Source: Balanoglossus misakiensis (taxonomy: Eukaryota; Animalia; Hemichordata). From it: a stretch of 64,000 nucleotides of DNA. How positions within the stretch are numbered: the stretch's first letter is position 1; every line of letters starts with the position of its first letter. Where the stretch lies: positions 1,860,001 to 1,924,000 of the forward strand of contig CM082577.2 in assembly GCA_040954595.2 (NCBI GenBank). Reading direction: 5' to 3'. Shown piece by piece: positions 1,004 through 46,108 of the stretch. A program made the translations under genes and the position numbers. The notes beneath the pieces are model-generated. The model was not told where the DNA came from, did not search any database, and worked only from the letters and a program-made list of their open reading frames with translations.

Positions 1004-4000
1004 TTTCAGAAGATGGCAAGGCGGCCAACAACAGCAGCCAGACGTCCAAGTATTTCTGCAAAGCGGAATCTCTCAGCTCAGCGCCGTTCACGTGGCTGTT
1101 TATCCGTCCCCCGTGGTCGCCCAGTGGAACATGTTGCAAGGCCATGGTCTTCAACAACATGAAGAACCACTGCAAAGCACAGGTGTGTGTGCTGGTGTGA
1201 ATTCAAGATCTTGTCCTATATAACAATGATACAGCTATGCTATTCCTTGAGTTGTTTGTGCCCAAATATATATTTGTGAAATGTTGTCAACATGAAGAAC
1301 AGTAATCAAAGAATACACCAATATGTGTTAATTTATTTACCATTTTGTCCTCATTTCAGGCCTCAAGTTCATCAACAATGTATTGTATAGCAAAAATTCT
1401 AAGTTTGTTTGATGTAAGTAATTCTTTAACTTTCTGCTATTTTAACTTTTGAATTTATTGCAATTAATTTTGGGAACCTATAGTGGAGAAAATCTTGTAT
1501 GCTGCTTAATGCACAGCTGTAGTCTTTTTCATAATCACATGATAAATTTCTCTGCTGGCAGGATGAAACAAAGCAAAAAGAAGCCTTGGAATGGTATCAG
1601 GAAGCAACCAATCAGGGATCGCCACATGCTGCATTAGTCACATGGAGAAATGCACAAAATCAAAATGTAAGTGCAGACGACTGTCACTGAAACTTTTTCC
1701 CGCCAAAAATCCTTTGCTCAAAGATTTGACCTTTTCTGTAATTAAACATATTTTGTGCCAGGCAAACATCAATAGTTACAAATTTCTAACTGATAAATTC
1801 ATTCTTCGGTGTCTTTTTTTCTTCAGATATTGGATCCAGGCTGCAGTCTTAATAGCATCAGACAACTCAGGGAATGTGCAAATAATAGCTGTATTGACGT
1901 CAAGGTAGGCCAATAAACTTAATTATCACGTAAAGGAAAAAATGTGCTTTGGTAAAAGAGCTGATCATTATCTTTCTGCCTCAGACATTCTCATCAAAGA
2001 TATATATTTTTTCCCATTTCATGCGCAGCTGAATTTACTTGAGTGTTACGCCAAGGGTCAGTTTGGTGGACTGACCACGTCGCAGGTTGCCGAGAGCTTC
2101 TGTCGACTCGTGAAAAGTTCAAGGCCGATGGGATCCAACAATATGTTTCACCAGCAACAGAATCTCAATGCAAGTATGAGGTAAGTGAATCAGTAGATTT
2201 CGAACTTACTGAAGAAGTCATGATTAGCAGTTTGTATAATGTGTATACCTGCATTTTATTTGCAAATAGTCTGACTTTTTTTCTGTGGTTTCCACATAGG
2301 TATATATTAATCGACTGGTTGGTTGAGGTCACAGGGATGAAGGACTTTAGCAATCTGACGCTACACACAGCTGTGCAGTGTATCGACAGGTACCTTATGC
2401 TACAGCCTACCACTCGGTCAAACCTCCAACTTCTGGGAATTGCTGCAATGGTTATCTGTTCCAGGTGAGTGTTAGGGGGATAAAGCAGTCATTTTCTTTG
2501 TGAACATCTTTCTACTTGAAATCCTTGGGCCACTGAGGTTTTTAACCTTTTCTTGGATTGAAGTTAAAACAAACATTCTTGTTTCCTGTAGGTTGCTGGA
2601 GAAAGACATAATTACAATACGGGAAGCGGCATGGCTGACTGACGGCACATACTCTTATGAAGAGGTCGTCCGGATGATCGGCGAGATAGTGGCTGTTCTT
2701 CATGGACAGATTAGGGTAAGGAAGAACTGTGGGTAATGAGGCTTGGACCATCAGTGAATATGGTTTGACAAGTTGTCCATGATCTTACATGTATTTGTAG
2801 TTTGGTGTGGTTATAGACTTCGGCACATGCTGACTGTTAGGTTATTTTCTTGCACAGGTTGTCACGGTAGTGGACTACCTGAAGCTGTTCTGCAGCCTGG
2901 CAGCGGTGGACAAACAGACAGAGTACCTAGCGATGTTCCTGGCAGAGATGACATTGCTATACACGGAATTTGGCGTGCATTCATCGGCTACCATTGCTGC
3001 AAGTGCAGTCTTTCTTTCAAGGATGTTACTTCTCCAAGGTGAGTCTTGCCAACGCGGTAAATAACAACTTCATATTCAGTTCATGTTTTTGGAGACATCT
3101 TCATTGGTAAGGGTTTGATTTAATTTTAATTTAATTTTGTTTGATAGATTTTCCATGGCCAGCCCACATGACAGGATTTACCGGTTACAAAGTTGAAGAC
3201 ATAACGCCGTGCACATTGATGTTATTCAAGAAATGGTAAGATTGTTTTTCAGAGCTACTTGCCAAATTGGATTTTTTTCCTGGGGTTTTATTTTGTTCAC
3301 ATGATTTGTCAAACTCAAGCAGTCTGTTACCCTACTCTAATGTTGTGAAAATATGTGCCATTTATCATATTCTTAATATTCAAATGACTGGCAAAAGCAC
3401 CTGTCATCCAGTGCACCAATATACTATTATGTATGCCCGAAGGTCTCACAGATTCCCCAAAGGGCCATTGCTGTCAGTTTAATTTCATATACTAAATTTT
3501 TGCAGTTTTGTCGAGCCGTCGCTGACCGATCACCGAGATGTGACACTGATGGCGGTAAAGCAGAGGTACTCTGAACGGGATTACATGGAGGTTGCCAAGA
3601 TGGACGTCATGAAGTACACAGAGTTGTGTAATCTGTTGGGTGCTCAGCCGAAGGCAGTGTTTGACGACGACGACTTATCAAGTCCCGAGGAGGAGGAGGA
3701 GCCGTGCCAGATGGACTTCCTGTCGCCGAACAAGCACAGGTAAAAGAGAGATCTTCGCCAATTTTGCTCGAATTGCATTTGTATAGTCAAACCTGTTTTT
3801 TTTTTTGATCTGCACCGTTAATTTCACAACCCAGGCTTAATCAGTTTCACTTCCCTCGCTTTCCAGGATGGACCAAGCGGAACTGAGCAAAGATCGCGAC
3901 AGCATGGTCGTCACCCCGATTGTAGAGTTGTCGGAGAGTCGCGACAACAGCGTCTTGGCGGGTGAACTCAGCAATGTGAGTTTCGACTCGGTTGGCACGG

Positions 4001-4565
4001 GATACGAAGGCGATAGAGAGAGTGAAGGAGAAATGGAGGTTGATGAAGAAGGAGGTAGTTATTCACATTATTATTTGTTTGTTCAATGGCCATGAGATTA
4101 ACCGTCCCATGCAATTAAGTTGAACATTAGGGAGCATTAAATCTTTTTTGTTTTTTGTTGGCAGACTGGTGCATGGATACCACCATCCATGTGGATGAAC
4201 CGAAAGACATATCAGCCAAACTGGCATCAAATACCTTCAGTGCAATAGTTGCCGTGGACACGCTCAGGAGTGGCCACAACTCCGAAGACACGAGCAACAG
4301 CGACCTTGCCTCTCCGCCGGCCTGCTTCAAGGTCAGGGCCAAGGGCAACCTGGAAGGAGCCAGTCCAAGCCCCAGCTCAGCAAGGTCGTACCGCATCAAC
4401 GCAGGCGGCAAACTCTCGCCCTGCAAGAATTCAGTACTGCAGCCAGTGCAGAACGTCTACTCGGGACGCCTGCGAAGACACGGCAAAGGGGTGCAGCACA
4501 AAAACGTGACACACAGACAGCCGAGGACTTTCGGTCTCGAAAACAGTCTGAACCTTGAACTATAG
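1004..4565 (+). CDS. CCNF: Cyclin F (FBXO1), 5'-partial, 12 visible exons: 1004-1182, 1360-1413, 1562-1666, 1827-1904, 2029-2180, 2300-2464, 2592-2715, 2858-3038, 3148-3235, 3506-3739, 3867-4054, 4165-4565
   Basis: Cyclin F-specific motif APFTWLFIRPPWSPSGTCCKA; cyclin box MRYILIDWLVEV...LHTAVQCIDRYL...LQLLGIAAMVICSR; C-terminal acidic/PEST region with GYEGDRESEGE. GT-AG junctions keep the frame. The F-box exons lie upstream of the window. Confidence 0.93.
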
Positions 4566-8283: not shown

Positions 8284-8907
8284 TTATTCCTTCTCAATTA
8301 TTTCCTCTCCTCCACTGGCGTCTTCCACTTGGGATTTTTCCTTGTTTTTCAGCGTCTCGTTGATCTTCTTCCGGGTGCACTGCATCATGTCCATGGTCAG
8401 ATTGATGGTGAACCAGGCCAAGGCCAGCAGAGCGGTCAACCCCAGAGCCAGCAGGCAGATGAAGACCAGTACTCCAGACATGACCACTCCGGCCAGGGTC
8501 ATCAGCGTGCCTGTCACAATGTCAAGTACAGCATTTTGTCAATCTTTAAATTTCATGAAAATGCGGTTTAACTGAAATTCAACAATTATTTACACAGACA
8601 GTGCAGTGGTTGCAAAAAGACAGGAGGAACAGCACTTACCTTCAACAAACACAAAACCTATGAAGCTGACACAGAGAGTCGTCACGACGAAAAAGATGAA
8701 ACCCACTATCGGCACGCTGGCCATCGCTATGACAACTGCACAAAACACGGTGAGAAGAGGATGTTCCTGAGCAAACTCCATGGCCTGGGCCGAGACTTCT
8801 TTCAAATGCAGTCTCTGTCCGACCATATTGGTCAAGTTGTTCAGTCTCTCTGACAGCATCTCTGGGGTGATTTTATTGGGGATGGGCCGGGTGGATTCCG
8901 ATGACAT
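8284..8907 (-). CDS. LDAF1: Lipid droplet assembly factor 1 / promethin (TMEM159); coding exons 8907-8640 and 8510-8284; probable non-coding first exon with donor at 9341
   Basis: HPLLTVFCAVVIAMASVPIVGFIFFVVTTLCVSFIGFVFVEG-TLMTLAGVVMSGVLVFICLLAL is a long double-hairpin hydrophobic stretch matching the promethin pattern HP..L......S.VP.GFF...V.T........EG. A phase-1 GT-AG intron joins the two ORFs in frame. Confidence 0.8.
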
Positions 8908-9341
8908 GGTGATTTCTTCAGTTATGTGCCTGCAGGCAAATCATAGCAGATAATATCCTTTATTTGAAGTATTAAATCTTGTTCCAGATATATTATAGAC
9001 TAGTGGTATGTTCTCAAAGACAAGAATATTTAAAAATACTATTACATGTATTACAGTAACTATACTGTCTGTGTTTTTACTTGAAGTTGTACATGTAGAA
9101 GAACAAAGTATTAGTTTGATCATTCTTGTATTTGAGAACAAAAATACGATGATGAAATCGTGAAATCGAGATGAGTCTATTAGGAACAAATTCCTTGACG
9201 TACACACATTTATTATAATCATTTGTTGTCTCATTGAGGGGCTCAGCAGCACGCTCTGCCTTCGTATCTCTCATGTCCCGCTATCATAATCTTATCAGTT
9301 CCATTACGTAAACTATAATCGAGTAAAACTTGGAGACCTAC

Positions 9342-9440: not shown

Positions 9441-13356
<3,916 letters not shown>

Positions 13357-13796: not shown

Positions 13797-16700
13797 TCAG
13801 TAGTCGTCTGCCGGTAGTCCGCGGGAGCCGAGGGACAATGAGACTTTGCGCAGCGCCGGTTGTATGTGCGGATACTCCTGGTTCATTTTGTCGACAATGG
13901 TGGTCAGCGTCTGCATGCGGTCGACCTGTTTCTGCGTCTCTGTCTCCAGCGCCTGTTCCGTCTTGCACAGCATAGTGTACTTGCCGTCCTTCAGGGCGTG
14001 GTGGTGCTTCAGTTTCTGCTGCCTGGCAATCAGGTCGGCCATGTTCTGGAAAGGGGTAGAGAGAAAACACACTCGGTCAGCGACGCGGGTGATAAAGACT
14101 AGCAATGGCAGCATATGTCAAAGTGAAGGTGGGCAATGTGGGTATGTCTTGTACGTTTTCACAGCAACTCACCCTTTGTTTGATTTCCATGAGTTGTTCA
14201 ATGTCCCCATCGAAGGTGTCAGCCTGGCCCTGCAGCTGTTGATACGTGGTTTGCTTCTCTTCCAGCTGTTGGCTCAGCTGTTGCTGATGACCTCTCAACT
14301 CTCCAATGTCCCCATCACATGCACCGGCATCCTGCAACACACACAGGGTCAAAGTTCAAAGCTTTCTACAGTAATTGCTGAAACTTAGCACTGATTTTAC
14401 GCAGCATTTCAGTCCGAAACAGACAAAATGAAATGATACGTTTGGTGAAGTTGCTCAATGCTGAAAAAATTTAACAAAACATCATGAATGCATTTTTTTA
14501 CCCACCTGTTGCACTTGTCTGATTTTCTTTTTCATCTCAGCCAACTTCTTCTTGAAGGTGCCTTTAGTTTCTACTTTCTTGTTCATCTTGGCCTGGGCGT
14601 CGCCTCTGGTTACTATGGTGTCGCGCCGGGAGACGGCCTTCTCCATGTCCTGGATCATTTTCTCCTGTTGCTTCATCAGCTGTGTGTAGCGCACCTGCAT
14701 TCGGTGGATTTCCGCTTTCATGGCACGGATCTCGCCCTGGCCTACCTCCGAGTCGACTGCGGCCTTAGCCTCCCGAGCCAGCTGTGTCTTCTTCTCCCAC
14801 AGCATGATTTGGCGCCTGGAAGAATTGCAGCAAAAAGAAGTGTTAGCCATACAACTACAGTCAAACCTGTGTTTGTGGCCACCTCTATATAGTGGCCACA
14901 TTATTCAGTTACTGTGCAGTTTACATGTGCATTAATTGACCTGTCTATAAAGGCCAGTATGGGAAAGTCCCTTGAGTGGCTGCTATAGGCAGTATCGACT
15001 GTAGTTTGAAATGACAATGAAGGACAATTTTCAGTCAGTGTCCATGGCATGGTAATACCATAAGACTGCATTTGGGAACTTACTCAGCTTCTACAAGACT
15101 GTTGAGAAGTCTTTCTTTCTCCTCTGTAAGTTCTTCCACAGTGGTCTGCATGTGGATAGACTCATGCTCTGCTTCCTGTCAACATAAGAACATTCAAATA
15201 TCAATAGATGGTTTTTCGCTCATTGCGAGATCTCGCAAGACTTGGTTCACTGCTGTAGCAACAAGACAACCTTTCAAATAAATTAGAAACCCAATATGGG
15301 TTCATAGAACTTTGGTACACCTTACCCTCAGACTTTGCATGAAATCACTTTCAACCAGTACATTGCCTTGTTCCAAATCTTGTTTGAGTTTCCCTTCCTT
15401 GGTCAGCAGTGTGTTCAGTTTGATCATGTCATTCTGCATGTTGCGGATATTTCTCTGAATATCGTCCTCCTCCTTGTTATGTGTGCTGATTTCATCTGAA
15501 GAACATATTACAATGAATGTTAGTCTTCAACAGAATGGCAGAAAGAGCAGACTTTGTAAGCAACTGCCAGTGAGTATTCAGGCACGACATTTTCACCAAC
15601 TTACTTTCAATTCTAAGTTTCTTCTGGTGCAGGATAGTCAGCGCTTTCTTCATGGTCTGCACCTCAGTTTCTTGGCCGTCTTTCTCCTTGGTCAGTTTGA
15701 CCAACTCGTTCTGCTGTCTCAGCCAGAACTGTTGCAGGTCAGCGATCTCCTGCGATCTTTGGTCAATGGACTTGGTCAGCGCATTGATCTCTTGCTCCAA
15801 GGGACCGAGTTCTTCGCCCTGGTGATGGGGAAAAAATTGTCATTGATTACTCCACTGTGAAAGTTTGTGATTTGTACATAAGAATGTACGCACTGTAGTT
15901 TTGTAAATATTTTCATGATGTCTGAAGTAACAACTTACTCCCTGAGCACTGGCGATGGCCTCGATCTTCTTATTATACTGGTCAATCTGACCCTGCTTCC
16001 TCTCAATCACAGCATTTCGCTTGACGATTTCGTTTTCGCTCTTAGAGATGATCTCGTTTTTCTCCCGGATTTCGTCGTCCATGTCAACCAGGATCCTCTT
16101 GAGTCTCTCACACCTCGTAACCGTGTGCGACAGTTCTAGTGTATCTCTGGCAATCTCATTTTCCACTTGTGCCATGGATGACTCCTAGCAAAATGAAAAA
16201 AAATCAAGAACAATTTTTAGGATGCGATGTCTGAAGAAAAGGAACGAACCTCACTACTCTTTGCACTGAACGTTTATTACTCAGTTCTCTTTACTGTTCA
16301 GGTGGAGAGTCAGAGAAAGTTGGCCCGCAGGCCTAAAACTCCATGCTGGGTTAAATTTGGTTATGATATCAGAAAACAGAAGACATGACAGATATTTTGC
16401 TTTAAAACATAACAAGGCCCCAATGATGACAGGCAATATAGGGAAAGCATAATAAACATTGCAAAAATACCTGATCACGAGTCCTTCCGCGGAGCTTGTC
16501 TGTCATTTTCTTGGTGTAGAGTGCAGCTTTATCCATCGTCAATTCCTCCCTCAGTTTTTCCATGATGGCATCCTCCAGTCGTACTTTCTCCTGGTATTCC
16601 CTCTCGATCTGCTTCCTGAGAGCATTCAGTTCATTCATGCGGAGACTACGATCCTGTGAGAATGAATGTAAGAGATGGATATCAATTCCTTCAAGATCTT

Positions 16701-19700
16701 GACACACCATGAAAAAGGTTGACATATGACATGCCCCCACATATTGGTCAGGTACATGTACATGGTAATGCCCAATCGTATTCAATGGTAAAGTTTTATC
16801 CAAAATTGGGGAAGAGGGGTTTGGGATAATACATTGTGACATCTTGTACGACAGAGAGTTCTAAATATGCCCTACGTACTGTTGTTGCCCTGTTGAGGGA
16901 CTGTTCCGTCTCGTGCAACATCCTGGTGAATGTGCTATACTCTTGTTTCAGTTTCTCTTGTTTGTCTTGGCACATCTGGATCAGTTTCTTGGTGGTGGCG
17001 ATGTCTGAGTCGTTCTTGTTCAGGATAATGGTCAGCGTTTCGTTGTTCTCCTGCTCCTTCTGAATGGACTTCTTATAGCCCTCGATTTCGGTGTCGTATG
17101 ACATGATGTTCTGTTTCTGCTGGCTGTGGAAGAGCAAGATGTTAAACTCAAATTTGAGTCAAAGACAAGCAGTGTGCCCTCTAACAAACATTATTTTTAA
17201 AAGCTTTGAGTCAATTTGAGGATTTCTAAAATTTTCTCTGAGTCAGCCCTATACCTTTGCATGCATTGTGGATAATTTTCTTGAGTTTGTTGAGTAAGTG
17301 GCACCGCACGTCACATAGTCAGTATTCTGCCTAGAGCAATTCAAACCTTGTGGCCACTACTCTTTAATTATGTTAGAACAATAGAAATAGATTAACATAA
17401 AACTTCATACTTGAGTGCCTCTTGCATTGCAGCATGTGCTTCGTCTCTTCTTCTCATTCCAATCAAACTGCTGTGCCATTGCTGCAACAGGTGCTTCTTC
17501 TCAAGATTGATGGACTGCAACACAATGATAGTTGATACACTCCCGTTATCACCCTGACCTTTTACTTTTGACCTCCGAGGTCATCAAAGTAGTTTCATAT
17601 CTAATGATTGATCAGTATTCATAGCTAATGATCATGATCTTGTCATCATGGATGGATGTGAAACAATAATGTATCGGTGATAATAAGCAGGATGCTTTTC
17701 AATATCCCCCTTATTGACACCCAGACAGAAACTCACGTCGATTTCTGTTCTTGCTTCGCTTAGTGACTCTGTTGCGGCCTTGGTTTCATCCGACTGGGCC
17801 TGCATCTGTGCCTCGTACATCGCAATCTCCTCCCTCAGCTTGTCCACAATCTCTGTCAGTCTGTCCACGTACAGATCTTGTCTCTGCTTCTCGGTTTCTG
17901 CCTTGGTGACCTCTGAGTCAGCTTTCTCCGCGGCCCGCCTCATCACGCTGATGTCTGACCTGACGTCATCCTTGGCGTTCAGCATGTAAAACAACCGAGT
18001 GGCCAGATTCTCAACTTCGGTCTGTAACTCAGATGCTGGAGGTGGTAGGAAGAACATGAAAAACAGTTTTACAGGTTAGCCTCTTTTATGGAACATCATT
18101 ACTGACTGTCATGTACACTATACTTGTAAAAAGTAAGTTTATATACTGTAGAAAAGTGTACATGTAAAAACTGACCTGTCTTGCGTTGTGATCCAACATT
18201 TGACTGGGAGTACTTGTAGAGGTGTCGCACTTCCTCCAGTTCTTCTTCGCACTGGTGCCTGACTTGATTCGTCTGACCGAACTCATCATGGAGTTTCTCC
18301 AGCAACATCTGCTGTCTGGCCAACTCTTGCTGCAGACCGTACAGATTCACTCCAAGATCCTCACGTTCCTTCTTCCTGTTCCTCAAACCTTCCAGCTGTG
18401 ACGTTCACCAAAGGAATGAAAAATTGGAAGTCAATATCTATGCACTCATACATTTAAATACATTTAACATTCTCTCTCAGTTTCTCTCCATCTGGGTCTG
18501 TCTACACCATTAGAAACCATAAGGGATGTACCACAGCTTCCTGGTGTAAAGAACTCAAATGTACAGAAGAATCCCCACTTACCAATTCTTTGAGTTCAAG
18601 AGTCACTTTCTCATTCTGCTTTGTCAGTTGAGATTTCAAAGCAATCTGGAATCTTTTCATCAGGGGCTGTAAGGGAAAAAAGATAAAAAATAAAAAGTTA
18701 TGTTATGTTTATTTCCAAGATTTTGACAGATGAGAAACTTCATCAAATGCTACTGGTACAATCTGTTCACTCAATAAAGTTCATAGTTACTGTAGTCATG
18801 GATACTTACATGGTCAGGGTCAAGAACAACCATCTCACTCTCTTCCTCACTGTCGTCGGACTCCATTTCTTCAGCGTCATCCCCTTCCTCATCAGCAAAA
18901 TCATCTCCATCACTGTCTGCATCCATAACTCCCATGTCATCTGGCAGTGTTAGATCTGTCTGGTCACCATAAGTATCTATAATGGAAAGGATAAAATGAG
19001 AAATTTAAATTCACAGAGGGGGTGTTTCAATTTTACCTGTGTAAAGTATAAATTAAATACATGACATGAATAAATTTGCACTTGCATTTTAGATGTGATG
19101 AGGTAATTTTAAATAGAAAACAATGGAATGAACGGTTGCGCATGTGCACTGTACTGTCAATCAAGCTCACTGTTTTCAATAGCATAAGAGGGTATGTTGC
19201 TTCAGTCCAAATGCTACACTCTACTGACCTTCAATCTGCCTGGCCGATCCTGTTCTGGATCCGGCTGATCTTCTGGAGCCGCCTGATCTGACACTCGCTG
19301 GTCTCTCTCCCTCTTCTAGTGTCGGAGGTGGTGGGGTCATCACTCCCCCTGGCATCTCGTCTTCATGTGGCGCTGACAGAGGTGGTTGTGGTGACTGCTC
19401 CGGTTCTGCTGGGCCGCCCTCGCCTCTGCTGCCTCCAGATCTCTGAGACCTTGCAGATTTGGCAGAACGGGATCTGGCCGATTTTGCTGATGATACTCTG
19501 CTTGGGGGACCTGATGGGGGTTTGGCCTCCACAGGTGGTTCTTCAGGGGCAGCCTCACCCTCCCCTGTAAACAATCGTTGTTGGAATAACGTTTAATGAC
19601 AGGGTGTCAGCATGCTAAGGAACTTTTCAGATTTAGCACATTTGAATGGTGGTGTAAGATCAAATATATCTTTACTTAGTCCATTCATTCTTACAGACAG

Positions 19701-26500: not shown

Positions 26501-29249
26501 ATTGCTTGATACTCCTAGGAAATTTCACACATAAATTGTTATAGACCTAGTTTGCGATCAGACCTCGATTTTCCCTCCATTTCCCTCATTCGCATCATTT
26601 CTGTAGTGATCAGAATATCCATACTCAGGAATCTACATCCTGGATTAAGCGGTAATGAAATAAAAAAACATTGCTCTGTGTGGAAATTTAGCTGATTTGG
26701 GTTTCCCGAAAATCTGGGATTATTTAATCGTCTTGAGTCATTTTGGAATGCACACGGCAGAAACTAATCTCAGAACACTTCCTTGCATGTTGCGGTATGT
26801 CTGATATGTTTTGGGGATTTTTATCGGTATTGTCATATCCAGGGTCTCACGGAGAGTTTGTGTGTGACTCAGGGCTGTGTATGTTGTTTGTACACAACTG
26901 ACAGCTGTGTGTGAAAGAGGTGCGTGAGTATACCGAGATTGGAGTGTAGTACTGGCTTGGGTACTTCATGATGTGGGATTGAACATATGTGTTTGTCAGG
27001 GAAGTGTATTGAGTGCCTAGCAAATATATGTGACTCCAGAGCCAAAAAACAACAAGTCAATTTTGTGATAAGAAAAGATATCAGTATGAAATTGGGAGCT
27101 GTTTTGTTTTGATCCAAAATGGTGTGATACTGATAGTCATAAATTTTGCCAATGAACAATGTACGACACAGCAGGTAGTACAAGTTTCAGTCATTTTTAT
27201 AGAATTGTTCTGTGTATGCACAAATATAGTGGAAAAGTTACAAATATTAAAGTCGGAAACTCCTGTAAAATTTTTGAAAAGAATCTAAAGGGAAAGCTGT
27301 TGTCATTTCTTTTTCTACTCCCAATCACAAGAACAATTTCTTTCTGAGAAAAACTCAGTGCATCTCATTGGACAAAACAATCATGCTCCTACAGTGTTTT
27401 TAGACATTATCTTCAAAAGTCTGCAAAAAGGCCAGTGAAGGCACATATCACCCCCTGGCAGTCAGTACTGTATATTACACTTGAAGTGGAAGTGCCCGAT
27501 GTAAGAAGACACCGGTGTTTTGCATCAGTCTGGGTAAATATTGCCCTTTACCTGCCGTGCAGTTTAAACAAGTCTCTCAGCATGCAGCAGCCTGTTCGTT
27601 TCTCGCTTTCAAATCGGTCTCTTTTTATTCCATTTCAAATGACCCTAGCTCAGCTTTCTACCTCTGCGACTCTGAGGCAGTGCAATTCTTCATACATCTA
27701 TATGGTTGTTGAAAAATTCCCCTGGTACATCAGTAATCCTGCTCAGAGCTGATTTAAGATGAGACGAGAATATGCAGACTGTGTTGTGTCAGATCATTTA
27801 CTCGGCAGTGTGACCTATCAGACCTATCAACACCCTGTGGGTGTTTTTAGTGTTTATCGGACACCCAGCCGCACAAATTTGATGCCAAAGAAAACACTTT
27901 CGAGATTAGAAAACTCCTCCCCTGGAATTACGTTGTAAGGCTAGCCTGAAATTTAATCTCAGACTGGAAGACGAAATTGCATGTTGTATTGAACACAAGT
28001 ATTTGTACCAGTAGTTCTGAATGCCAGTTTGGCATTAGTCATTTTGTACTTGTAGGCTTTCAAAATATCCCTCTGCTGTTCATATTTGTAAGGATTGACT
28101 CAATATGATCAGATCCAAATGATTTGAAGGCAGTCTAATTTGTTTAATTTCAGATTCCAAACATCTCACCTTCATAGGAGTACAGTAGCCTGTAAACTAT
28201 GGCTTTGATACTTCAGACTCAGTATCACTTTTGCAGAATATGCCATGCATTCATAGTTTTCTGTGGTGCCCAGATGAGGTGCCCTGTTGTTTGTGATGGC
28301 TAATTTTGTATGATTTATGGGTCCAGATAAAATATGTAAACTATCTTATGAACAGGTGAATATGTACCATAGATAATTCATTACATTTTAATACTGGGTC
28401 ATGACAGAACCAGGTCTGTGCCCTGCGCTATATTTTGGTTCTAATTCTATAGTGTCCTCTTTGAATTATTGAATTATTCAGTTTTTCTGGTTGTATTTTT
28501 GTATTGGATCAAAATGTCATGTCCTTGCCTGGTGTATACCGGTATGTTGAAACCAGAATTTATTAGTGTGTATGTGGATTCTTTTTGTCAAAATTAGGAT
28601 GAAAAATTCTATGAAAATGTCTTTTTTTAGAAGCTGATACATGTATGTACACGATATCGATAATCTCATGCTTGCCATGCATGGAATGGGCAGAGAGGTC
28701 TTTGAAGGCCAGGAGATTAGTTAATATCTCACAGAACAATTTTGTGAGATGCTATGAATATATATTATGACAAACCTAATCAAAGTTCTAACCAGACTAT
28801 TTCTTAGCACTTTGTTGATCAAAATTTGAGCTGTGTTTTCCCCCTTATCATGTGGTGATGCTGGTGTGAAAAATTTCAATTGAAAGGTAGATGTTTCTTT
28901 CTTCCTTTGTTCGCCGAAGCGTGATAGAATCACACAGTTGCCTGCTTTTAGTCGACCGATGAGTGGGTGTACGTTGTATGTCAGCCAGTTTTCAACTCTG
29001 CCATTTGATCAGTTATCACGAAATGCCAATCGCCGTTCTCGGCTATTTGGAAGAAATTTGAGTGTATGAAGCCTGAGTTTTATGCCGAAAATAGATGCCA
29101 TGACTATCGTGATGATTGGATTTTTGTTTTGGTTTCAGTGAACACTCAAAAAAACACCTCAACGAGCCATGATGAAAAAGTAGAGACCTCTCGTCGGATT
29201 TGATTCACGGACCCAGGATTCTCATCCCTCGTTCTGCATCACAGTTACC

Positions 29250-32200
29250 ATGGCAGCCCTTTGGAAGAAAGTGTCGGACATCCTCGGGATCTCGAACAAC
29301 GACATCAAGGCACCACCGCTGGACGGCGAGATCATCTACTGCAAGAACAACGTCTGTGTGCACCCTCCGACAAAACTCAGCAGCCAGATCGAGCACCATC
29401 CGGGCTACCTCACCATCCGGGCTCAGGAGGAGGAAGACGTCGGCTCCACCCTCATCCTGACCTGGATCCCGAACTCGTCGCTGAAGAAGAGCAAGAAGAA
29501 AGCGGCGCGTTACCTGTCGCCGCACGGCTCACCGATGCACATGCGGTTCGCCCGCGCCAAACAGACTTCACTGGACGGGATCAGCCTCAGCTCGCTGGGC
29601 TCTGTCAGCCAGGACAGCATCAGTATTGCCAGCTCCGAGGCGGAGCGGGTCATCTCTCTGGAGTTCTTGAAGGAGAAGCTGGAACGAAAACAGAGGGGCG
29701 CACGGGGGGAGACCTCGGTGGTGGAAAAGAGAGAGCTGGCGGATAATTTTGAGAATCCTGAACAGGGAAGCGGCGAGGTCTTGAACAACGTCAAGCGGCC
29801 ATCCACGGAAAAACAGCCAGATATCGGTAAACACGTCAATGAGTTGAACGAGAAAAATAACATTAACAAGGCGGGGAGCATCAGCTCCGTTAGTTCTGAT
29901 ACGGTTGACGGGAACGATGAGAAGGGTGGGGACAAGGATTTGAATCTCGCCAAACCAGACAGCCTGGCGATAAACGTGGACAGGGAGGCAAGTGCGTCGG
30001 AAAGCGACGTTTCCCCGGGATACGGGGTTGTCAGGGAGGTGGGTAAACTCGCCGTCGAACATCAACCGCTGCTGCTGTCAGAGAGCGAAGATGGAGGAAG
30101 GAGTGATGTTGGTGAAATGAGCCCGACGAAAGAAAGGAGAAATGTCAATCCAGGGGAGAAGGCACCGCAGAGCACGGATGTTGCCTGTCCTGATGAAGGG
30201 GAGGTAACAGGGGGAATGAAGTCTGTGGAAGGTTCGCAAAACAGTCACGAAAAGACAGAATCGCAGGAAACAGGGTCGACAGATAAAGATGCGAGTATGC
30301 AGAATGAGAAAACTACAAAGACAGACAGAAACCTGTTAGCATCACCAGCAAAAAGTGACAGTGCTTCATCCACTGACAGTGAAGTGGTGAAAACTGAGAA
30401 CCAACTCCACGAGTTGTTGCAGCAGGTGGGCCTCGAGGAGAACGGGTCTCAGAGCGTCGACGTGAACGACGAGAAGCCTGAACGACCGTCGGAGTTGGAT
30501 GTCAAGACCAAGAAGGTGATTCACACCGCCATAGGGGACTTCGAAGAGGACAGCCCCAGCTCAGACTCCACCAACGCAAGCCCCTACCCTTCTCCGTACA
30601 AATCACTCATGTACGGACCGAACGTCGAGAAGACAGTACTGCACGTGGATCCTTCCCTTACTGCAGTGGTCCACTCAGACGCTTCGAGCTCCACGACACC
30701 AACCACATCCAACCGAGACCCCATGTCGCTGCCAAGCACCCCAACGGACTCCAGTGGTCCGTCCACACCCAGCGCCAGCGAACCACCGTCTCCGCTCAAC
30801 ACCGCCGAGCGGCAGAAGTCGATGATGGAAGGGAATCCGGAATCCTTTGCCATGACTCACAATCTGACATTCCCAGATAATTCCATATCCTACACCTCAC
30901 CTCAAAGGAGGAACCTGTGTCCCAAAGATCAGCTGCTTGGGGTGTTTTCTGTCGACCTGTCTGAAATGAGGTCGCTGCGGTTATTTTTCTCGGACGACAA
31001 CTGCACATGTGGTCAGTTGGTCATTGCTAGCAGGGAAAGCCAGTACAAGATCATTCATTTTCATCACGGCGGACTTGACAGACTCGCTGAAGTCTTCGAA
31101 GACTGGAAGATCTGCGTTCAACAGAAAGAAAAGGTAGGGATTCATTGACTGTGTTTAACCCTTTTACCTCCAGTGCCCTGTGTATGGATTCAACCAGGCT
31201 GTCATAAATAGCAGGTTTGTGGTGAATTGGGTTAAACTGACAATATATTTTGTAAATGGTGCATACGCAGGTACATGCATAGAGTGGTACTGCTTTTAAC
31301 CCTTCACCCCCATTTCCTGTGATATAGTTTCAACCAGGCTTTCATAAATAGCAGAAACAAAAATAAAGTGGTGAATTGGGTTAAACTGACACAGTATTTT
31401 GGTAAATGGTACATGCATATTGATACTGCCAGGATAAATGAAGATAAAGTATAGTCTTCATAAATTGAAAAATTTTCATTATTTTTTCACCATTTGTATC
31501 CCTACAGTTCCAATTTCTAATACAAAATGACAGACATTGGCTTGGATGTGAATGCTTTTTACCTAGTACATCATGTTGCAGGCGTAAATGGACCGTCAGA
31601 CATCACAGTTCATCGATCTGTGGAATTATTTTCCATGTGCTAGTGGCCCATACATGTCCTTGCAATGACGACCATTCTCAGTCTGATATTCCATGCTCTA
31701 CATACATACACCATCTACAATGTCAATTTCTTTTATACCCATTCGCATATACAGCGTAATGCCGAAGTTGAATTGAACCAGTTGTGCCGGAAATTCTCCA
31801 TCTGCCGGCCCCATCTTCCCTCATCCGACTGTCACCCGGAAGAGGGAATGTACGGCGTGGTGTCTGATGAAGTGTGGTGGTCATACGTCAGTGACTACGG
31901 ACAGATTGAGGACAGTGAAGGTCTGCGAAAGGTCAGTTTTAATCTGAGGGATCTGGGCCTCTTTGGATGTGAATATGAATGTTGACAAGGAAATTTATGA
32001 ACTGCGATCAGGAAAATCATGAATTATATGACATTTTAAATTAAAGTAGTTCTGGATGAAGATTTCCACACACACGTTCGTAGGTAAAATTTCCATTGAA
32101 CACACACTGCCCATGCAATTCAATATGGCTGCCAAATGCACTGGGGCAAGTAAATTAATGATCATCACAGTAGGGCGTGTTAGCCAGGTTGGATACATAC

Positions 32201-39576: not shown

Positions 39577-39900
<324 letters not shown>

Positions 39901-39933
39901 ATATACCAACGAAAACCACGCAATATGCACAAC

Positions 39934-39970
39934 GGCCCTTTTCAGGGCCACCACATACTCCAAAAAGAGA
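39934..39970 (+). terminator. Histone 3' stem-loop plus histone downstream element (U7 site)
   Basis: GGCCCT-TTTC-AGGGCC (39934-39949), then ACCACA, then purine-rich CAAAAAGAGA (39961-39970). Confidence 0.95.
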
Positions 39971-41193: not shown

Positions 41194-44100
41194 ATGGACC
41201 TCATCCAGACGGGACTCTACATCGGAGGTAGCGGGGACGCGAGAAACTCGCAGGCTCTTCACGACGCAGGCATAACGCATGTCTTGTCCATAGAGCTGAT
41301 CAAACCCGATGTCTCTCCAGACTTTGTGCACAAGTTTGTCCACCTCATGGACGATGAAGAGTACGATATACTGAAACAGTTCCCGCAGTGTATCAAGTTT
41401 ATCCAAGAAGGCATTGAGAAAGGCGGAGTGCTTGTTCATTGGTAAGTGCCCCTGGTAACTACAACAGCTATAAAAGCACAGCTGTTCTCAGTATATGGTA
41501 TTTGGATGTGTTGCTGATAAACCAGACATGCATTTTGATTTTTCGTGAGGAAATAGTGAACAATAAGCAAGTTTATATAAAAAAGAAGATTTTATTGAGT
41601 GTTTCTGTATGAGAATGTGACATCCACCAGTAGTGGTCGTCGTACACTAGTTAAGATTCTCAACTACAGATAGAAAAGATTCCACACATACCATCATCCA
41701 AAATGTCTGCATTTTCTGTCACAGAGCAGCTTTATTATCACTTTTTGCATGATAATATCTCCCAATTTATTTACCTAAAAAAACTTGGAAAACATTTCAA
41801 AATGTGAAGTTGAGGTAAATCTTTCCCCATGCTCAGTTTAATAGTAAGTGCGGTGGTATGGTGGCAGGAGTTATTTCAGAAATTTCCTCTGATGAGGGCA
41901 AGAGTGAAAGATAAATGCCTGACAGTGTCAGGTTACTCAGGTCAAATTGAAATTGATAAAAGGGGAAGAATTGTATTTAAGATGGGATTTATTATATTGA
42001 TTTTAGGAATGGATAAATTGTGCGAAACATTTTATCATGATATCTGGTATCAAATGTATGCTCCAAAATTTGTCCCTTGACCACTTCAAAGAATAGGACT
42101 TCAAAGAAGTCGTCGAGTATGTGAGCATAATGCTTCAGACATCAATACACATGTAATGGGTCATCACATCACAGAATTAGAACCATCCTCAGGCGTACAA
42201 ACTTCTCTGCACCTCTAGAGTCCAATTGACATTCCAGATTCCTCTGCTCAACAACGATTATAATTTGAACGTTAACTATAACTTCTGATCCGTGTAAAAA
42301 AACTATGAGTCAAGTATCCATCTAAGGACTTTGAATGAATGAAATTTTATCTTACACATGTAATAGGGGATAGGTTCTTCCCTATTCTTGTCTGTGCTAC
42401 TTTTGCTCTGGAATGTCATGGCGGAGAAGGTGACATTCTGAGGCTATTCAGAGGTTTTCATTCTATTTATGAGGTGTGCTCATAGATCCAAGAAGTTTTT
42501 GATATTTTTTGCCATTCCAAAACATTTCAAATTCACCCAATAGAAATATGCTTTCAGATTTCCAGTACAAGAAGGCTATGTTTAGTAAAACAATTTGAGT
42601 CCTCACTCCTCACTATCAAATAAAATGGATAATTACCCTGGTCTTTGAATAGAAACCCCTAAAATAATCCTGCTCATGGGTGGTAGGTAATCATATATTA
42701 CTGGAAAGCTCAGATTATATACAAATTATGTCATATTTTTCCACTTCATTGCCTCTTCAAAATCCCTGAGCGGTGAATTTTTTACTCTTACTCGGTTACT
42801 GTTTATTTTAAGAAGTCTAGACAAACATCAAATATTTTTAAAGGATCTTTATTTACTGTGAAGGCTTGATGGAGTCTAGATCTATCTGTATGACTAATAT
42901 TGAGAAGTGCACTGTGCTAAGTTTGTCTGATGAGAATGACTGCAGTTTGACCCAGAAACCTATAAACAACTGTCAATTAAGTCTGGTCTGTCAGTCTTTA
43001 TCTGTCACACATTCCAGAATACTTTCTGCCGATATAGTTTCAGAGCTGTACGTAGTGTTTGGTTTCCATGAGTAGAAATTCCCATACAGGCCACAGGCAT
43101 TAAATCATCTGAAAATATCTTGTCAGTACGGCTGTTCAGCTTGTGAGCATCAAAATGTGATCCATGCTTGGACTATATTGTCAGAGTTTATGAGGTATAT
43201 TGTGGTCACAAAGTAGACTCCTTGAGAAACAATGCATGCGTTTTCTTGCAATTACATTGAAATAAAAATGTGGATGATACGTCTTTAATTTGAAACCGGT
43301 TCTTCACTCTGTATCGACGCCAACAGATTGATACCTCAAATTTCTGAAAACAACTATTTTATTTGAAACATGACTCTCAACACTGTCACTTCAATTTCTC
43401 CACCAACACTCCAGCATGCTGGCTGTGTTTACATCATCAGGTCGTTTAGTCTGACAGCAATATGGTGTGTAATTTCAATACTTGTGTCATTCTGCCTGAT
43501 GGCTGACATTCTAACCATGGTATCTTTCAACATACATTCATGAAAATTAATTAGACACACATCTTCCCTGTTGTATTGTTTGTTGACACGTAACTGGTAT
43601 TGTCTTTCAGATCATCAGTAACGTCTAAATACTAAATCATCTTAATTTCTCCATTTTTTTCTGTTCACCTTTTTCATTTCCAATCCCTCCACCTTTTTTT
43701 GCCTTTTTTTTCTTGGTTTCTTCACTCACTCTCTGTATTCCCGTTTCCCACCTCCCCTGGAATTGTCCGTTTCTTTCCGAGCAGTGCCATGGGCGCATCG
43801 AGAAGTGCCGCTGTCATCCTTTCGTACATAATGCACTCTGAGAAATTGTCGCTGGATGACGCCATTGCAAAGGTGAAAGAAAAACGAGAACGGATCAGGT
43901 ATGAAATGTAACATATATCGTGAAGATTTTTTTGTTTTCTTTTCTTTTCGCAGTGCATTTGGTGCATCTCGCAGTGCTGCAGTAATCCTAGCCTATCTAA
44001 TTTTTTTGGAGAGAATTTCTCTGGAGGCTGCGATTGCCAAGGTCAAAGCAATAAGACCAAACATAAGGTTTGTACTGCATCATGTACAAACGTGAAAGCA

Positions 44101-46108
44101 AAATAAGGAAAGCAAAATTATAAAAAAAGGTAATTGTACTAAATTTGGGTGAAAGGTGATGGTTTCAATTTGAAAGAAAGTGATGAATTCCAACATATTG
44201 TCAGTTTTCAAATGTTTGCGCTACTTTACGAGTCAAGAGTTCACAATAAAAGTTGTATTAACCCTTTCACCACCATAGTTAATTGGTAAAGTTGAACCTC
44301 TAAAGAGAGAAATGGGGCTGAAAGGGTTAAATTTTGTCACATGCAGAAAAGTGTATATTAAAATTGGACGTCATCAGCATTGGGAACCAATATATTTAAT
44401 AATCCTTTAATAATTGTTCAGTAAGCAAAAGATGTAAAAATGGTGCACAGACAAACTTGCTCGGAATTCAGCATAGCTTAGCAGCATTGAAAATCTTTCT
44501 CTTCTAGTTAGAGACTATTGTGAAATAACACTCTGGGCCTTCATTGTTTTAGTGACATTGATTTTACATCTGGAAATAATCTGAACTTTCATTTTAATCT
44601 CTTACCACAAGGTTGGAGATGAGTTTGTTGAAGGTTACAGGGTGCTTTTAGCTTCATTAGTGTACATGTCACGTGGATAGGGAAGTATGGAAAGAGATTA
44701 AAATTTAAATTCAGACCAATTTCAAACATACATGTATGTCCAACCTTGTGGTAACTCTGATAGCAATGAAGAAAATAACCAGATGTGACAATGAAAATAT
44801 GTTTGTTTGTTTGTTTGTTTGTTTGTTTGTTTTGTGTGTGTGTGTAGACATAAACTTGATTTTCATGTGGTATGGTTGTTTTCATACAGTTTAAAAAATA
44901 CATACAGTTGCCAGTTGCTATCTTGAAAACTTCTGGTTTTCAGGTGACATCAGAGTTTCAATCTTTCAACTTTGTTCCCAATTTCTGATCAAATTCTGCA
45001 GTTAGATAGAGAAATTGGCCAGAATGCTGTCTTTTGCTTATATATTCTTTGCATTGGAGATATTGAAAAATGCAAAAATGTGGCAGCCACTGTCTGTCTT
45101 CTCAACGTTATTATCCAAAGCACATCAAGGGACAGCAACCCTGCCCCTTTTTGTACAAGAACATGACTAAACTCTGCAATCTCCTCTTATTCGTTTCTTG
45201 TGTAGACCAAACGATGGCTTCATGCACCAGCTGAGAATCTTCGATGCCATGGGAGGCATCATCCAACCAGAGAACCCCTTGTACAAGCAGTATCAACTGG
45301 ATTTCAGGCCAGAGGTCAGAGGTGAGAGGTCAAGAATGTTAACGACAGTGCTTCCAGACTGGCTTTTGACTGTAAAGTGGGATGGTAGTCGTAATGGATA
45401 TAATGTCTACCTTGTGTTTATTAAATGGAAAAGAAATTTGGTTGTTTTGTTATGACGCAAGTGTAGTAATTAGGTTTTGTTTAGACTACTGCATAGATGC
45501 GTGTGATTGGGCACACAAGTCATGAGTGCTGGAGCTTGGCTGGCAGAATTTGTAGACAGCATCTCACAGCACTGAATCCAGTGAAGAGTATCAGATGGCA
45601 GGGTATCAGGAATGGGGTGAAAATTCATGTGAATATCCAAAACGTTATGCGATATATCTAAAATGAATTTTGCCAAATGTAAAACTTTTGACTGCACATC
45701 TTGCATAATCATGGTAACAGAATGAAGTACGTTAATATTTTTTTTATAGAGCCTGTGGTTTATGTGACGTTCAAAGTGAGCTACAAACTGGACCCCACTG
45801 ACGGACACAAGGAGGCCTTGGCCATCACCGGCGAGCACCGCCTCTTGGGCAAATGGAGGAAGCACCGACTGATGAGACCCAAGTGGGGACCCGACGGCTG
45901 GGAGATCACGCTGGCCTTCTCGCAGAACACCACGCTGCTCTGGAAGTTCGTGGTGGTGGAGTACCAGAAGGCGTCCAGTCGGCAGTACGGCCCCAAGTCA
46001 ACGTACGGATGTGGGAAGGTGATCAGTTGGGAGGGCGGCGACAACCGGGTCCTGCAGACGGGGACTGACCAGTGGATCTTGATCGAGGGCCAGTGGGGGA
46101 AGTGTTAG
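41194..46108 (+). CDS. DUSP12/YVH1-like dual-specificity phosphatase fused to a C-terminal CBM20. Exons 41194-41441, [43785-43898 or 43954-44067], 45206-45321, 45750-46108; 278 aa
   Basis: GLYIGG...GITHVLSI...HLMDDEEYDIL.QFPQCIKFIQEG...GGVLVH-C (codon split TG|T) then AMGASRS or AFGASRS, AAVIL.Y, and RPNDGFMHQLRIFDAMGGIIQPENPLYKQYQL (DUSP12-like tail). A phase-1 junction leads in frame into VTFKV...EALAITGEHRLLGKW...M...DGWEITL...LWKFVV...SWEGGDNRVL (CBM20 signature). Confidence 0.85.
44258..44330. mobile_element. piggyBac-like MITE
   Basis: TTAA-CCCTTTCA...TGAAAGGG-TTAA: TTAA target duplication and CCCT/AGGG termini. Confidence 0.75.
44800..44846. repeat. (GTTT)n followed by (GT)n microsatellite
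   Basis: Directly visible. Confidence 0.9.

Follow-up and report, generated by a model that had tools for sequence, protein, structure and literature searches.

The plus strand of a 64-kb stretch of Balanoglossus misakiensis contig CM082577.2 (hereafter the window, whose positions supply all coordinates) carries a gene joining an N-terminal DSP phosphatase domain to a C-terminal CBM20. Because its catalytic-loop exon is tandemly duplicated, the gene has five coding exons. Exon 1 (41194–41441) holds the ATG and the N-terminal half of the DSP with the general acid D53, and it breaks off at 41441 partway through the codon for the catalytic Cys (phase 2). Exons 2a (43785–43898; loop CAMGASR) and 2b (43954–44067; loop CAFGASR) are two 114-nt versions of the catalytic-loop exon separated by a 55-nt intron (43899–43953). 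Exon 3 (45206–45321) encodes the PNDGF motif and a DUSP12/YVH1-type C-terminal helix, ending in a phase-1 donor, and exon 4 (45750–46108) encodes an STBD1-type CBM20 (aa 161–278) with W195, K225, W253, and N258, a 16-aa insert (aa 231–246), and the stop codon TAG. GT/AG dinucleotides border all exon ends, and the spliced coding sequence with either middle exon measures 837 nt (278 aa plus stop).

Taken singly, exons 1, 2a, and 2b matched Pfam DSPc (E 1.6e-4, 5.2e-10, and 2.9e-7) and exon 4 matched CBM_20 (E 6e-10; 39.2 bits against a curated cut-off of 23.3); exon 3 alone gave no Pfam match. In P0001, Pfam places the DSP at 13–138, followed by CBM_20 at 168–271 (42 bits). The DSP, which comprises the N-terminal 155 aa, has D53, C83, R89, S90, and the RPNDGF motif and is joined almost directly to the CBM20, without a long linker. 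An earlier note on this DNA had read four spliced segments as one 278-aa frame with an intact DSP and a CBM20, expecting DSPc and CBM_20 profile matches at the two ends; splice-site dinucleotides, Pfam, and orthologs uphold that reading, and the exon phases agree with its placement of the CBM20 on a single exon behind a phase-1 intron. An AlphaFold model built from a 25-row alignment (pLDDT 80.4, pTM 0.60) is good over the DSP and moderate over the CBM20, with a domain orientation that is not trustworthy.

Orthologs in Ptychodera, Saccoglossus, and Glandiceps (76–85% identity; 84% for exon 1 against Ptychodera) have the same DSP–CBM20 order, and recurrence of that order in three independently annotated genes argues against chance splicing. 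That two adjacent genes, or a pseudo-exon, were joined through misannotation is a negligible prospect. The peptide at the predicted junction of exons 3 and 4 (45321/45750) is near-identical in four species within a 13-residue invariant run (aa 157–169), the orthologs' models place no separate start codon in exon 4, and read-through of the exon-3 donor yields 44 unrelated residues before a stop. In sequence searches of other animals, the DSP–CBM20 fusion was found in acorn worms only; a Schizocardium CBM20 also matches the acorn-worm fused proteins.

Both versions of the catalytic exon are conserved in Ptychodera, where isoforms X1 and X2, both NCBI gene models, differ solely in this exon. Exon 2a shares 33 of 37 residues with X1 and exon 2b shares 32 of 37 with X2, whereas 2a and 2b share 23 of 37 with each other; the Saccoglossus and Glandiceps records use version a. 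The earlier note had quoted both loops but had not called them alternative exons. The sole branch-point-like TAAC of the 55-nt intron lies at its positions 11–14, adjoining the 2a donor, an arrangement that may exclude joint inclusion of 2a and 2b sterically. Models of canonical DUSP12 include both-in and both-out forms of its catalytic exons, which speaks against taking strict exclusivity for granted. In a tree of the duplicated exons (37 columns), the best topology pairs 2a with 2b (78/91), but topologies grouping them instead with the two exons of DUSP12 withstood the test (p-AU 0.21 and 0.29).

The DSP is a DUSP12 paralog. Its best solved relative is human DUSP12, both by sequence (E 1.5e-24) and by Foldseek (E 7.5e-16); VIA-align to 4ki9 gave Z 25.4 and an rmsd of 1.5 over 155 residues, with DUSP7, CnYvh1, and SSH2 scoring within 1 Z. 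Exon 3 aligns up to the end of the human DUSP12 structures 4jnb and 4ki9. Laforin was not among the best 60 of the 78 PDB sequence matches, and neither laforin nor SEX4 was among the matches listed by Foldseek and VIA-align, all of them DSPs, so that these fold searches speak to the DSP part alone. In DSP trees that contained no laforin sequence, the DSPs of the fused proteins group as a single clade (100/100) amid sequences of DUSP12, which bears out the earlier assignment to this subfamily; the deep branches of the tree are weak (86/79). For the timing of the gene duplication, hemichordate versus ambulacrarian stem, the alternative was not rejected (p-AU 0.32).

A separate DUSP12 with its zinc domain, which the earlier note had proposed to seek in this genome, is kept in the relatives Ptychodera, Saccoglossus, and Glandiceps; in Ptychodera it lies on a different contig from the fused gene, and its DSP is 49% identical. 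The cysteine-rich zinc-binding domain is absent from the present protein and its three orthologs, as the suggested replacement by a CBM20 implied, and a tblastn search of the window with the Ptychodera zinc domain gave E 0.68 at best. With DUSP12/YVH1/MKP-4 the gene thus shares DSP sequence and fold, the extended C-terminal helix, an intact catalytic Asp and Cys-X5-Arg, and a catalytic exon of identical extent, 38 codons, as seen from the exon-skipping isoforms P0083, P0132, and P0137; it differs in its separate locus and in having a CBM20 in place of the zinc domain with its pre-60S function. A retrocopy origin was rejected, since the introns match those of DUSP12. The gene may instead have arisen by DNA-level duplication, with a terminal CBM20 exon captured at an existing DUSP12 intron.

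In sequence searches, the nearest kin of the CBM20 is vertebrate STBD1 (35–40% identity), not laforin, which was not matched at E ≤ 1 in the search where STBD1 was. Of the 17 matches in a representative search, 13 were discarded as spurious, being either WD40/PD40 propellers or a repeat protein; the ESM Atlas returned only generic CBM_20 clusters for this part. The Site-1 residues of STBD1 (W293/K322/W334/N339; PMC11406230) map to W195/K225/W253/N258, invariant in 8/8 rows of alignment A3 (four acorn-worm and four STBD1-type rows). The earlier note's claim of preserved sugar-binding residues therefore stands for these four contacts, but its choice of laforin as the comparison does not, STBD1 being nearer. 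Site 2 of STBD1 (H271, Y272, V273, R333, W355; PMC11406230) is kept at 2/5 positions in the window protein and 3/5 in the three orthologs: Y171 and W275 are retained, S170 and K172 are changed, and the R333 position is S252 here and Arg in the orthologs. STBD1 (genethonin-1), a glycophagy receptor, thus likewise has a C-terminal CBM20 with Site 1, complete in the gene, and Site 2, partial there; it has an N-terminal hydrophobic anchor and LIR region where the gene has a DSP.

The 16-aa insert (aa 231–246), absent from STBD1, is invariant at 16/16 positions, against 64/102 for the remaining CBM20. The size of this insert, the partial Site 2, a basic surface, and a modest Pfam score (39–42 bits against about 60 for STBD1) would suit a CBM20 that no longer binds glycogen and replaces the zinc domain as a protein-interaction or stabilizing module. 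We regard this as very unlikely, given that the four Site-1 residues are invariant in all acorn-worm and STBD1-type rows.

C-x-A-G-x-G-R is the family signature of glucan phosphatases (laforin, SEX4, LSF2). Neither CAMGASR nor CAFGASR matches this pattern, here taken from LSF2/OsttaDSP residues: both are without the Ala and the second of the two Gly residues found there and resemble ordinary DUSP12/Yvh1 loops (CAMGVSR in Diadema, CAMGKSR in fungi), which bears out the earlier caveat that they are unlike glucan-phosphatase loops. A fusion of the laforin CBM to VHR is described as an active phosphatase that releases no phosphate from amylopectin (PMC2064834, as it cites Worby 2006). On the strength of that ordinary loop and that fusion, we somewhat favor, from sequence comparison, an acorn-worm DUSP12 duplicate whose zinc domain was replaced by an STBD1-type CBM20, forming a cysteine phosphatase tethered to glycogen that would act on glycogen-bound proteins rather than on glycogen itself. 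The CBM20 would stack on α-1,4-glucan through W195/W253 with K225/N258, like STBD1 Site 1, and the domain swap would take the DSP away from its part in maturing ribosomes and bring it to glycogen particles. Splicing exons 2a and 2b singly would give two active-site variants on one anchor, and the invariant insert may offer the DSP, or some partner, a surface to dock on. The yeast Yvh1–glycogen link, cited in the earlier note, lends no support: the glycogen effect reportedly does not depend on catalysis, and the part of Yvh1 responsible for its ribosome role is the zinc domain, which is missing from this gene.

The apparent absence of laforin from two surveyed hemichordates favors instead a laforin-replacing role. 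A convergent glucan phosphatase, in which CBM20 and insert deliver phosphorylated chains of glycogen to the DSP and the two exons could differ in C3/C6 preference, is a tentative possibility. The characterized CBM-plus-DSP proteins in the literature consulted, laforin and SEX4, are all glucan phosphatases in either domain order, and with so direct a joint the two domains could share an integrated surface like that of SEX4. The ESM feature neighbors are laforin (0.92) and plant CBM48–DSP clusters, but the match shares only 143/256 features and tracks domain content. A 2026 survey lists no laforin for Ptychodera and enters as laforin (a single "LAF") a Schizocardium CBM20 that appears to be a gene of the present type; neither of these two hemichordates thus seems to have true laforin. 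That survey missed the Ptychodera fused gene, however, so its absence calls are imperfect. Against glucan activity also stand the DUSP12-type loop and the failure of a CBM by itself to confer it on VHR, in the account of PMC2064834 citing Worby 2006. Glucan DSPs described to date carry aromatic residues around the active site that are dedicated to glucan binding. It is doubtful, though conceivable, that acorn worms lost separate laforin and STBD1 and rebuilt a glycogen phosphatase, in reversed order and with two switchable active-site exons, from a DUSP12 duplicate and an STBD1 CBM20 exon.

A role chiefly as glycogen adaptor, with the CBM20 as anchor, the DSP fold recruiting a ubiquitin ligase or autophagy factor, and catalysis secondary, we consider improbable. 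Yvh1 functions are largely catalysis-independent, the STBD1 CBM20 is described as mediating contacts with glycogen-associated proteins (PMC4076837), a paper is titled "Laforin targets malin to glycogen," and the insert is more conserved than its surroundings. All four species and both exon versions nevertheless retain Asp, Cys, Arg, and Ser as catalytic residues, and the persistence of two different catalytic exons points to an active site of functional importance.

Membership in laforin, the Lafora-disease enzyme (EPM2A), was rejected. Both proteins combine one CBM20 and one DSP in about 280–330 aa and share Site-1 residues, but laforin is CBM20–DSP; the reversed order here, the DUSP12-derived DSP, the CBM20 nearest STBD1, and the protein-DSP-type loop accord with the earlier proposal of an origin independent of laforin. 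SEX4, the plant DSP–CBM48 glucan phosphatase, shares the DSP-then-CBM order and short connection and differs in its CBM48, unrelated DSP subfamily, and kingdom.

Among animal CBM20 proteins, the gene is a fourth type and a second phosphatase, and it likely corrects the published Schizocardium "laforin" entry. It also extends the C-terminal CBM20 of STBD1 type beyond the chordates, the group to which a published paper had confined it. The literature consulted does not firmly establish any direct substrate of DUSP12. The gene is a natural counterpart of the engineered CBM–DSP fusion that failed on glucan; one small recombinant protein would therefore show whether a DUSP12 domain can evolve into a phosphatase of glucan. 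Should the answer be no, the glycogen particle becomes a defined place to seek DUSP12-type substrates. If a glycogen phosphatase was indeed rebuilt, the gene would represent a third independent origin of CBM-bearing glucan phosphatases and a natural test of what converts a protein DSP into one.

The gene lies on the forward strand, with GT/AG splice ends throughout: coding exon 1 (41194-41441), two tandem 114-nt versions of the catalytic-loop exon, 2a (43785-43898; loop CAMGASR) and 2b (43954-44067; CAFGASR), exon 3 (45206-45321), and exon 4 (45750-46108). Pfam assigns DSPc to exons 1, 2a, and 2b and CBM_20 to exon 4 (E 6e-10, above the cut-off), with exon 3 unmatched, which bears out the earlier note's proposal of a DSP followed by a C-terminal CBM20 in one spliced frame. 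In the splice reconstruction, either 2a or 2b gives an open frame of 278 aa, both together an in-frame product of 316 aa with the loop repeated, and skipping of both a stop codon at the exon junction. The catalytic Asp lies 30 residues N-terminal of the catalytic Cys, the spacing expected for the DSP family. GC3 is 0.85 in the CBM20 exon versus 0.57-0.68 in exons 1, 2a, and 3 and 0.32 in exon 2b.

An intronless, lone gene with a 3′ stem-loop (39589-39960, +; Pfam histone fold), which we take to be histone H4, lies on the same strand, 1.3 kb upstream of where the phosphatase gene starts. The window also holds a cyclin gene (2043-4565, +; Cyclin_N), a Promethin-family gene (8590-8940, −), a long ATC/ACC-type trinucleotide repeat (9630-10030) that reads as homopolymers in several frames, a long coiled-coil gene (14482-19592, −), and a PH_RBD gene (29184-31148, +). 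The last two may be CCDC40 and TBC1D16, a pair that is adjacent in vertebrates too.

When longer proteins were searched with the CBM20 exon, 3 of 42 candidates matched. Each combines DSPc with CBM_20 in 277-283 aa and bears only the name DUSP12-like or MPK-4-like; they come from Ptychodera flava (85% identity to the spliced protein), Saccoglossus kowalevskii (77%), and Glandiceps talaboti (76%). A profile of the fused proteins gave 56 matches among 2101 candidates, and the same three alone carried both domains. Exhaustive phmmer of the CBM20 exon against 1.84 billion representatives yielded 17 matches: the family's own cluster, three CBM20 proteins, and 13 spurious ones. Within the reach of these searches, the fusion therefore occurs in enteropneusts alone; the sensitivity of the word-based ones is limited, and a DSP joined to an unrelated CBM20 could escape detection.

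The DSP is a DUSP12 paralog, in agreement with the earlier assignment. Human DUSP12 is its top PDB sequence match, scoring 90 bits against 83 for DUSP19 in an alignment that includes the additional C-terminal helix, and also the best Foldseek match of a model predicted for the Ptychodera ortholog. In a tree of 38 DSP domains of DUSP12/Yvh1 type, built without laforin or other named DUSP subfamilies, the four fused DSPs form one clade (100/100); hemichordate DUSP12s are closest to it by path, and the DSP from the window groups as acorn-worm, nearest the Ptychodera ortholog. A 22-row animal subset, likewise without those subfamilies, places the fused DSPs next to DUSP12 of echinoderms, though weakly (86/79), and does not reject their grouping with hemichordate DUSP12 (p-AU 0.32). 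Separate zinc-domain DUSP12 genes were found in Ptychodera (on a different contig from the fused gene), Glandiceps, and Saccoglossus. Exon-skip isoforms of DUSP12 are known from Ptychodera, a fish, and a frog, and what they are missing is exactly 38 residues at the catalytic loop; hence the fused gene owes its exon structure to DUSP12, from which it was duplicated as DNA. In Acropora, a pair of DUSP12 isoforms differs by 6 residues ~10 residues past the YKxY motif, close to the CBM20-exon junction of the fused gene, which suggests, from protein isoforms alone, that the CBM20 exon was captured at an old DUSP12 intron.

Exons 2a and 2b share 23/37 residues and merely 8/37 codons; each resembles its Ptychodera counterpart more fully (33/37 and 32/37 residues), and the catalytic exon is the sole difference between NCBI isoform models X1 and X2 of the Ptychodera fused gene. 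No fused-gene record with both catalytic exons occurred among the 56 profile matches. The intervening intron is 55 nt long, with a single branch-point-like sequence at positions 11-14, so that steric clash would block joint inclusion, a mechanism known from alpha-tropomyosin. Canonical DUSP12 of Ptychodera and Glandiceps likewise has two tandem catalytic-loop exons of 38 codons; in a pattern screen of 104 proteins, only these two carried tandem loops 39 residues apart. The Ptychodera canonical gene is modelled as four isoforms (both catalytic exons, either, or neither), and the echinoderm DUSP12 records examined have a single loop. Our literature search found no paper on mutually exclusive exons in DUSP12.

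The CBM20 is STBD1-type. Human STBD1 (8x8k, E 1.2e-6) is its sole real PDB match at E≤1, although laforin is in the PDB too, as 4RKK (cited in PMC11406230). The three CBM20 proteins among the phmmer matches are STBD1 of coelacanth, STBD1 of platypus, and an unnamed protein that shares a cluster with a skink protein laid out like STBD1. STBD1 Site 1, given as W293, K322, W334, and N339 in PMC11406230, corresponds to W195, K225, W253, and N258, invariant in all eight rows of an alignment of acorn-worm and STBD1-type domains. The earlier note had aligned the sugar-binding residues to those of laforin; the nearest kin of the domain is STBD1. Site 2, which that paper ascribes to STBD1 alone, is retained in part: all four acorn worms have its Tyr and its C-terminal Trp, and three have its Arg. 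The domain also contains 16 residues (aa 231-246) that STBD1 lacks; this insert is invariant across the four species (64/102 residues in the rest of the domain), lies within the protein's longest invariant run (22 aa), and is poorly predicted in the structure model.

Because the sugar-contact residues are conserved and the active site is intact, the CBM20 likely binds glycogen and the DSP is likely catalytic. We somewhat favor a glycogen-bound protein, rather than glycogen, as substrate. The catalytic loop cannot be told apart from that of an ordinary DUSP12/Yvh1 and differs from the LSF2-type loop (PMC5779698), upholding the caveat that it is not of the glucan-phosphatase kind, and a laforin-CBM/VHR fusion is reported not to dephosphorylate amylopectin (PMC2064834, citing Worby 2006). 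Both points weigh against a convergent glucan phosphatase acting on glycogen in place of laforin, which we consider less likely. In favor of that reading, the two domains abut, all characterized CBM-DSP proteins in PMC9254107, PMC2714694, and PMC2064834 are glucan phosphatases, and true laforin is seemingly missing from both hemichordates in the 74-species survey of PMC12913940. The yeast Yvh1 glycogen phenotype, earlier offered as support, was dropped: a paper cited in PMC9404827 states in its title that the phenotype does not depend on catalytic activity, and the zinc domain is the part of Yvh1 to which its role in ribosomes has been mapped (PMC9404827).

That CBM20 survey (PMC12913940) recognizes three metazoan clades, lists one LAF and one GPCPD1 for Schizocardium, and overlooks the Ptychodera copy of the fused gene. 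Of its two aligned Schizocardium rows, one resembles GPCPD1 rows and the other, SCA02278.1, matches the fused family's CBM20 by eye; the 'LAF' is therefore very likely an ortholog of the fused gene. Further sources are PMC12892837, PMC11593807, and, uninformative here, 10.1101/2021.03.26.437206. An ESM Atlas cluster from Streptophyta (448 aa, 89 members; AMPK1_CBM + DSPc, auto-named 'DUSP12 family protein') may possibly be a parallel CBM-DSP fusion. A literature search weak on subscription papers turned up no account of any DSP-CBM20 or DUSP12-CBM20 protein. In design the fused protein comes close to laforin and SEX4, yet it is a member of neither family. Its domain architecture, which joins a DUSP12-derived DSP to an STBD1-type CBM20, is real and conserved, has so far been seen in acorn worms alone, and is apparently new to the literature.
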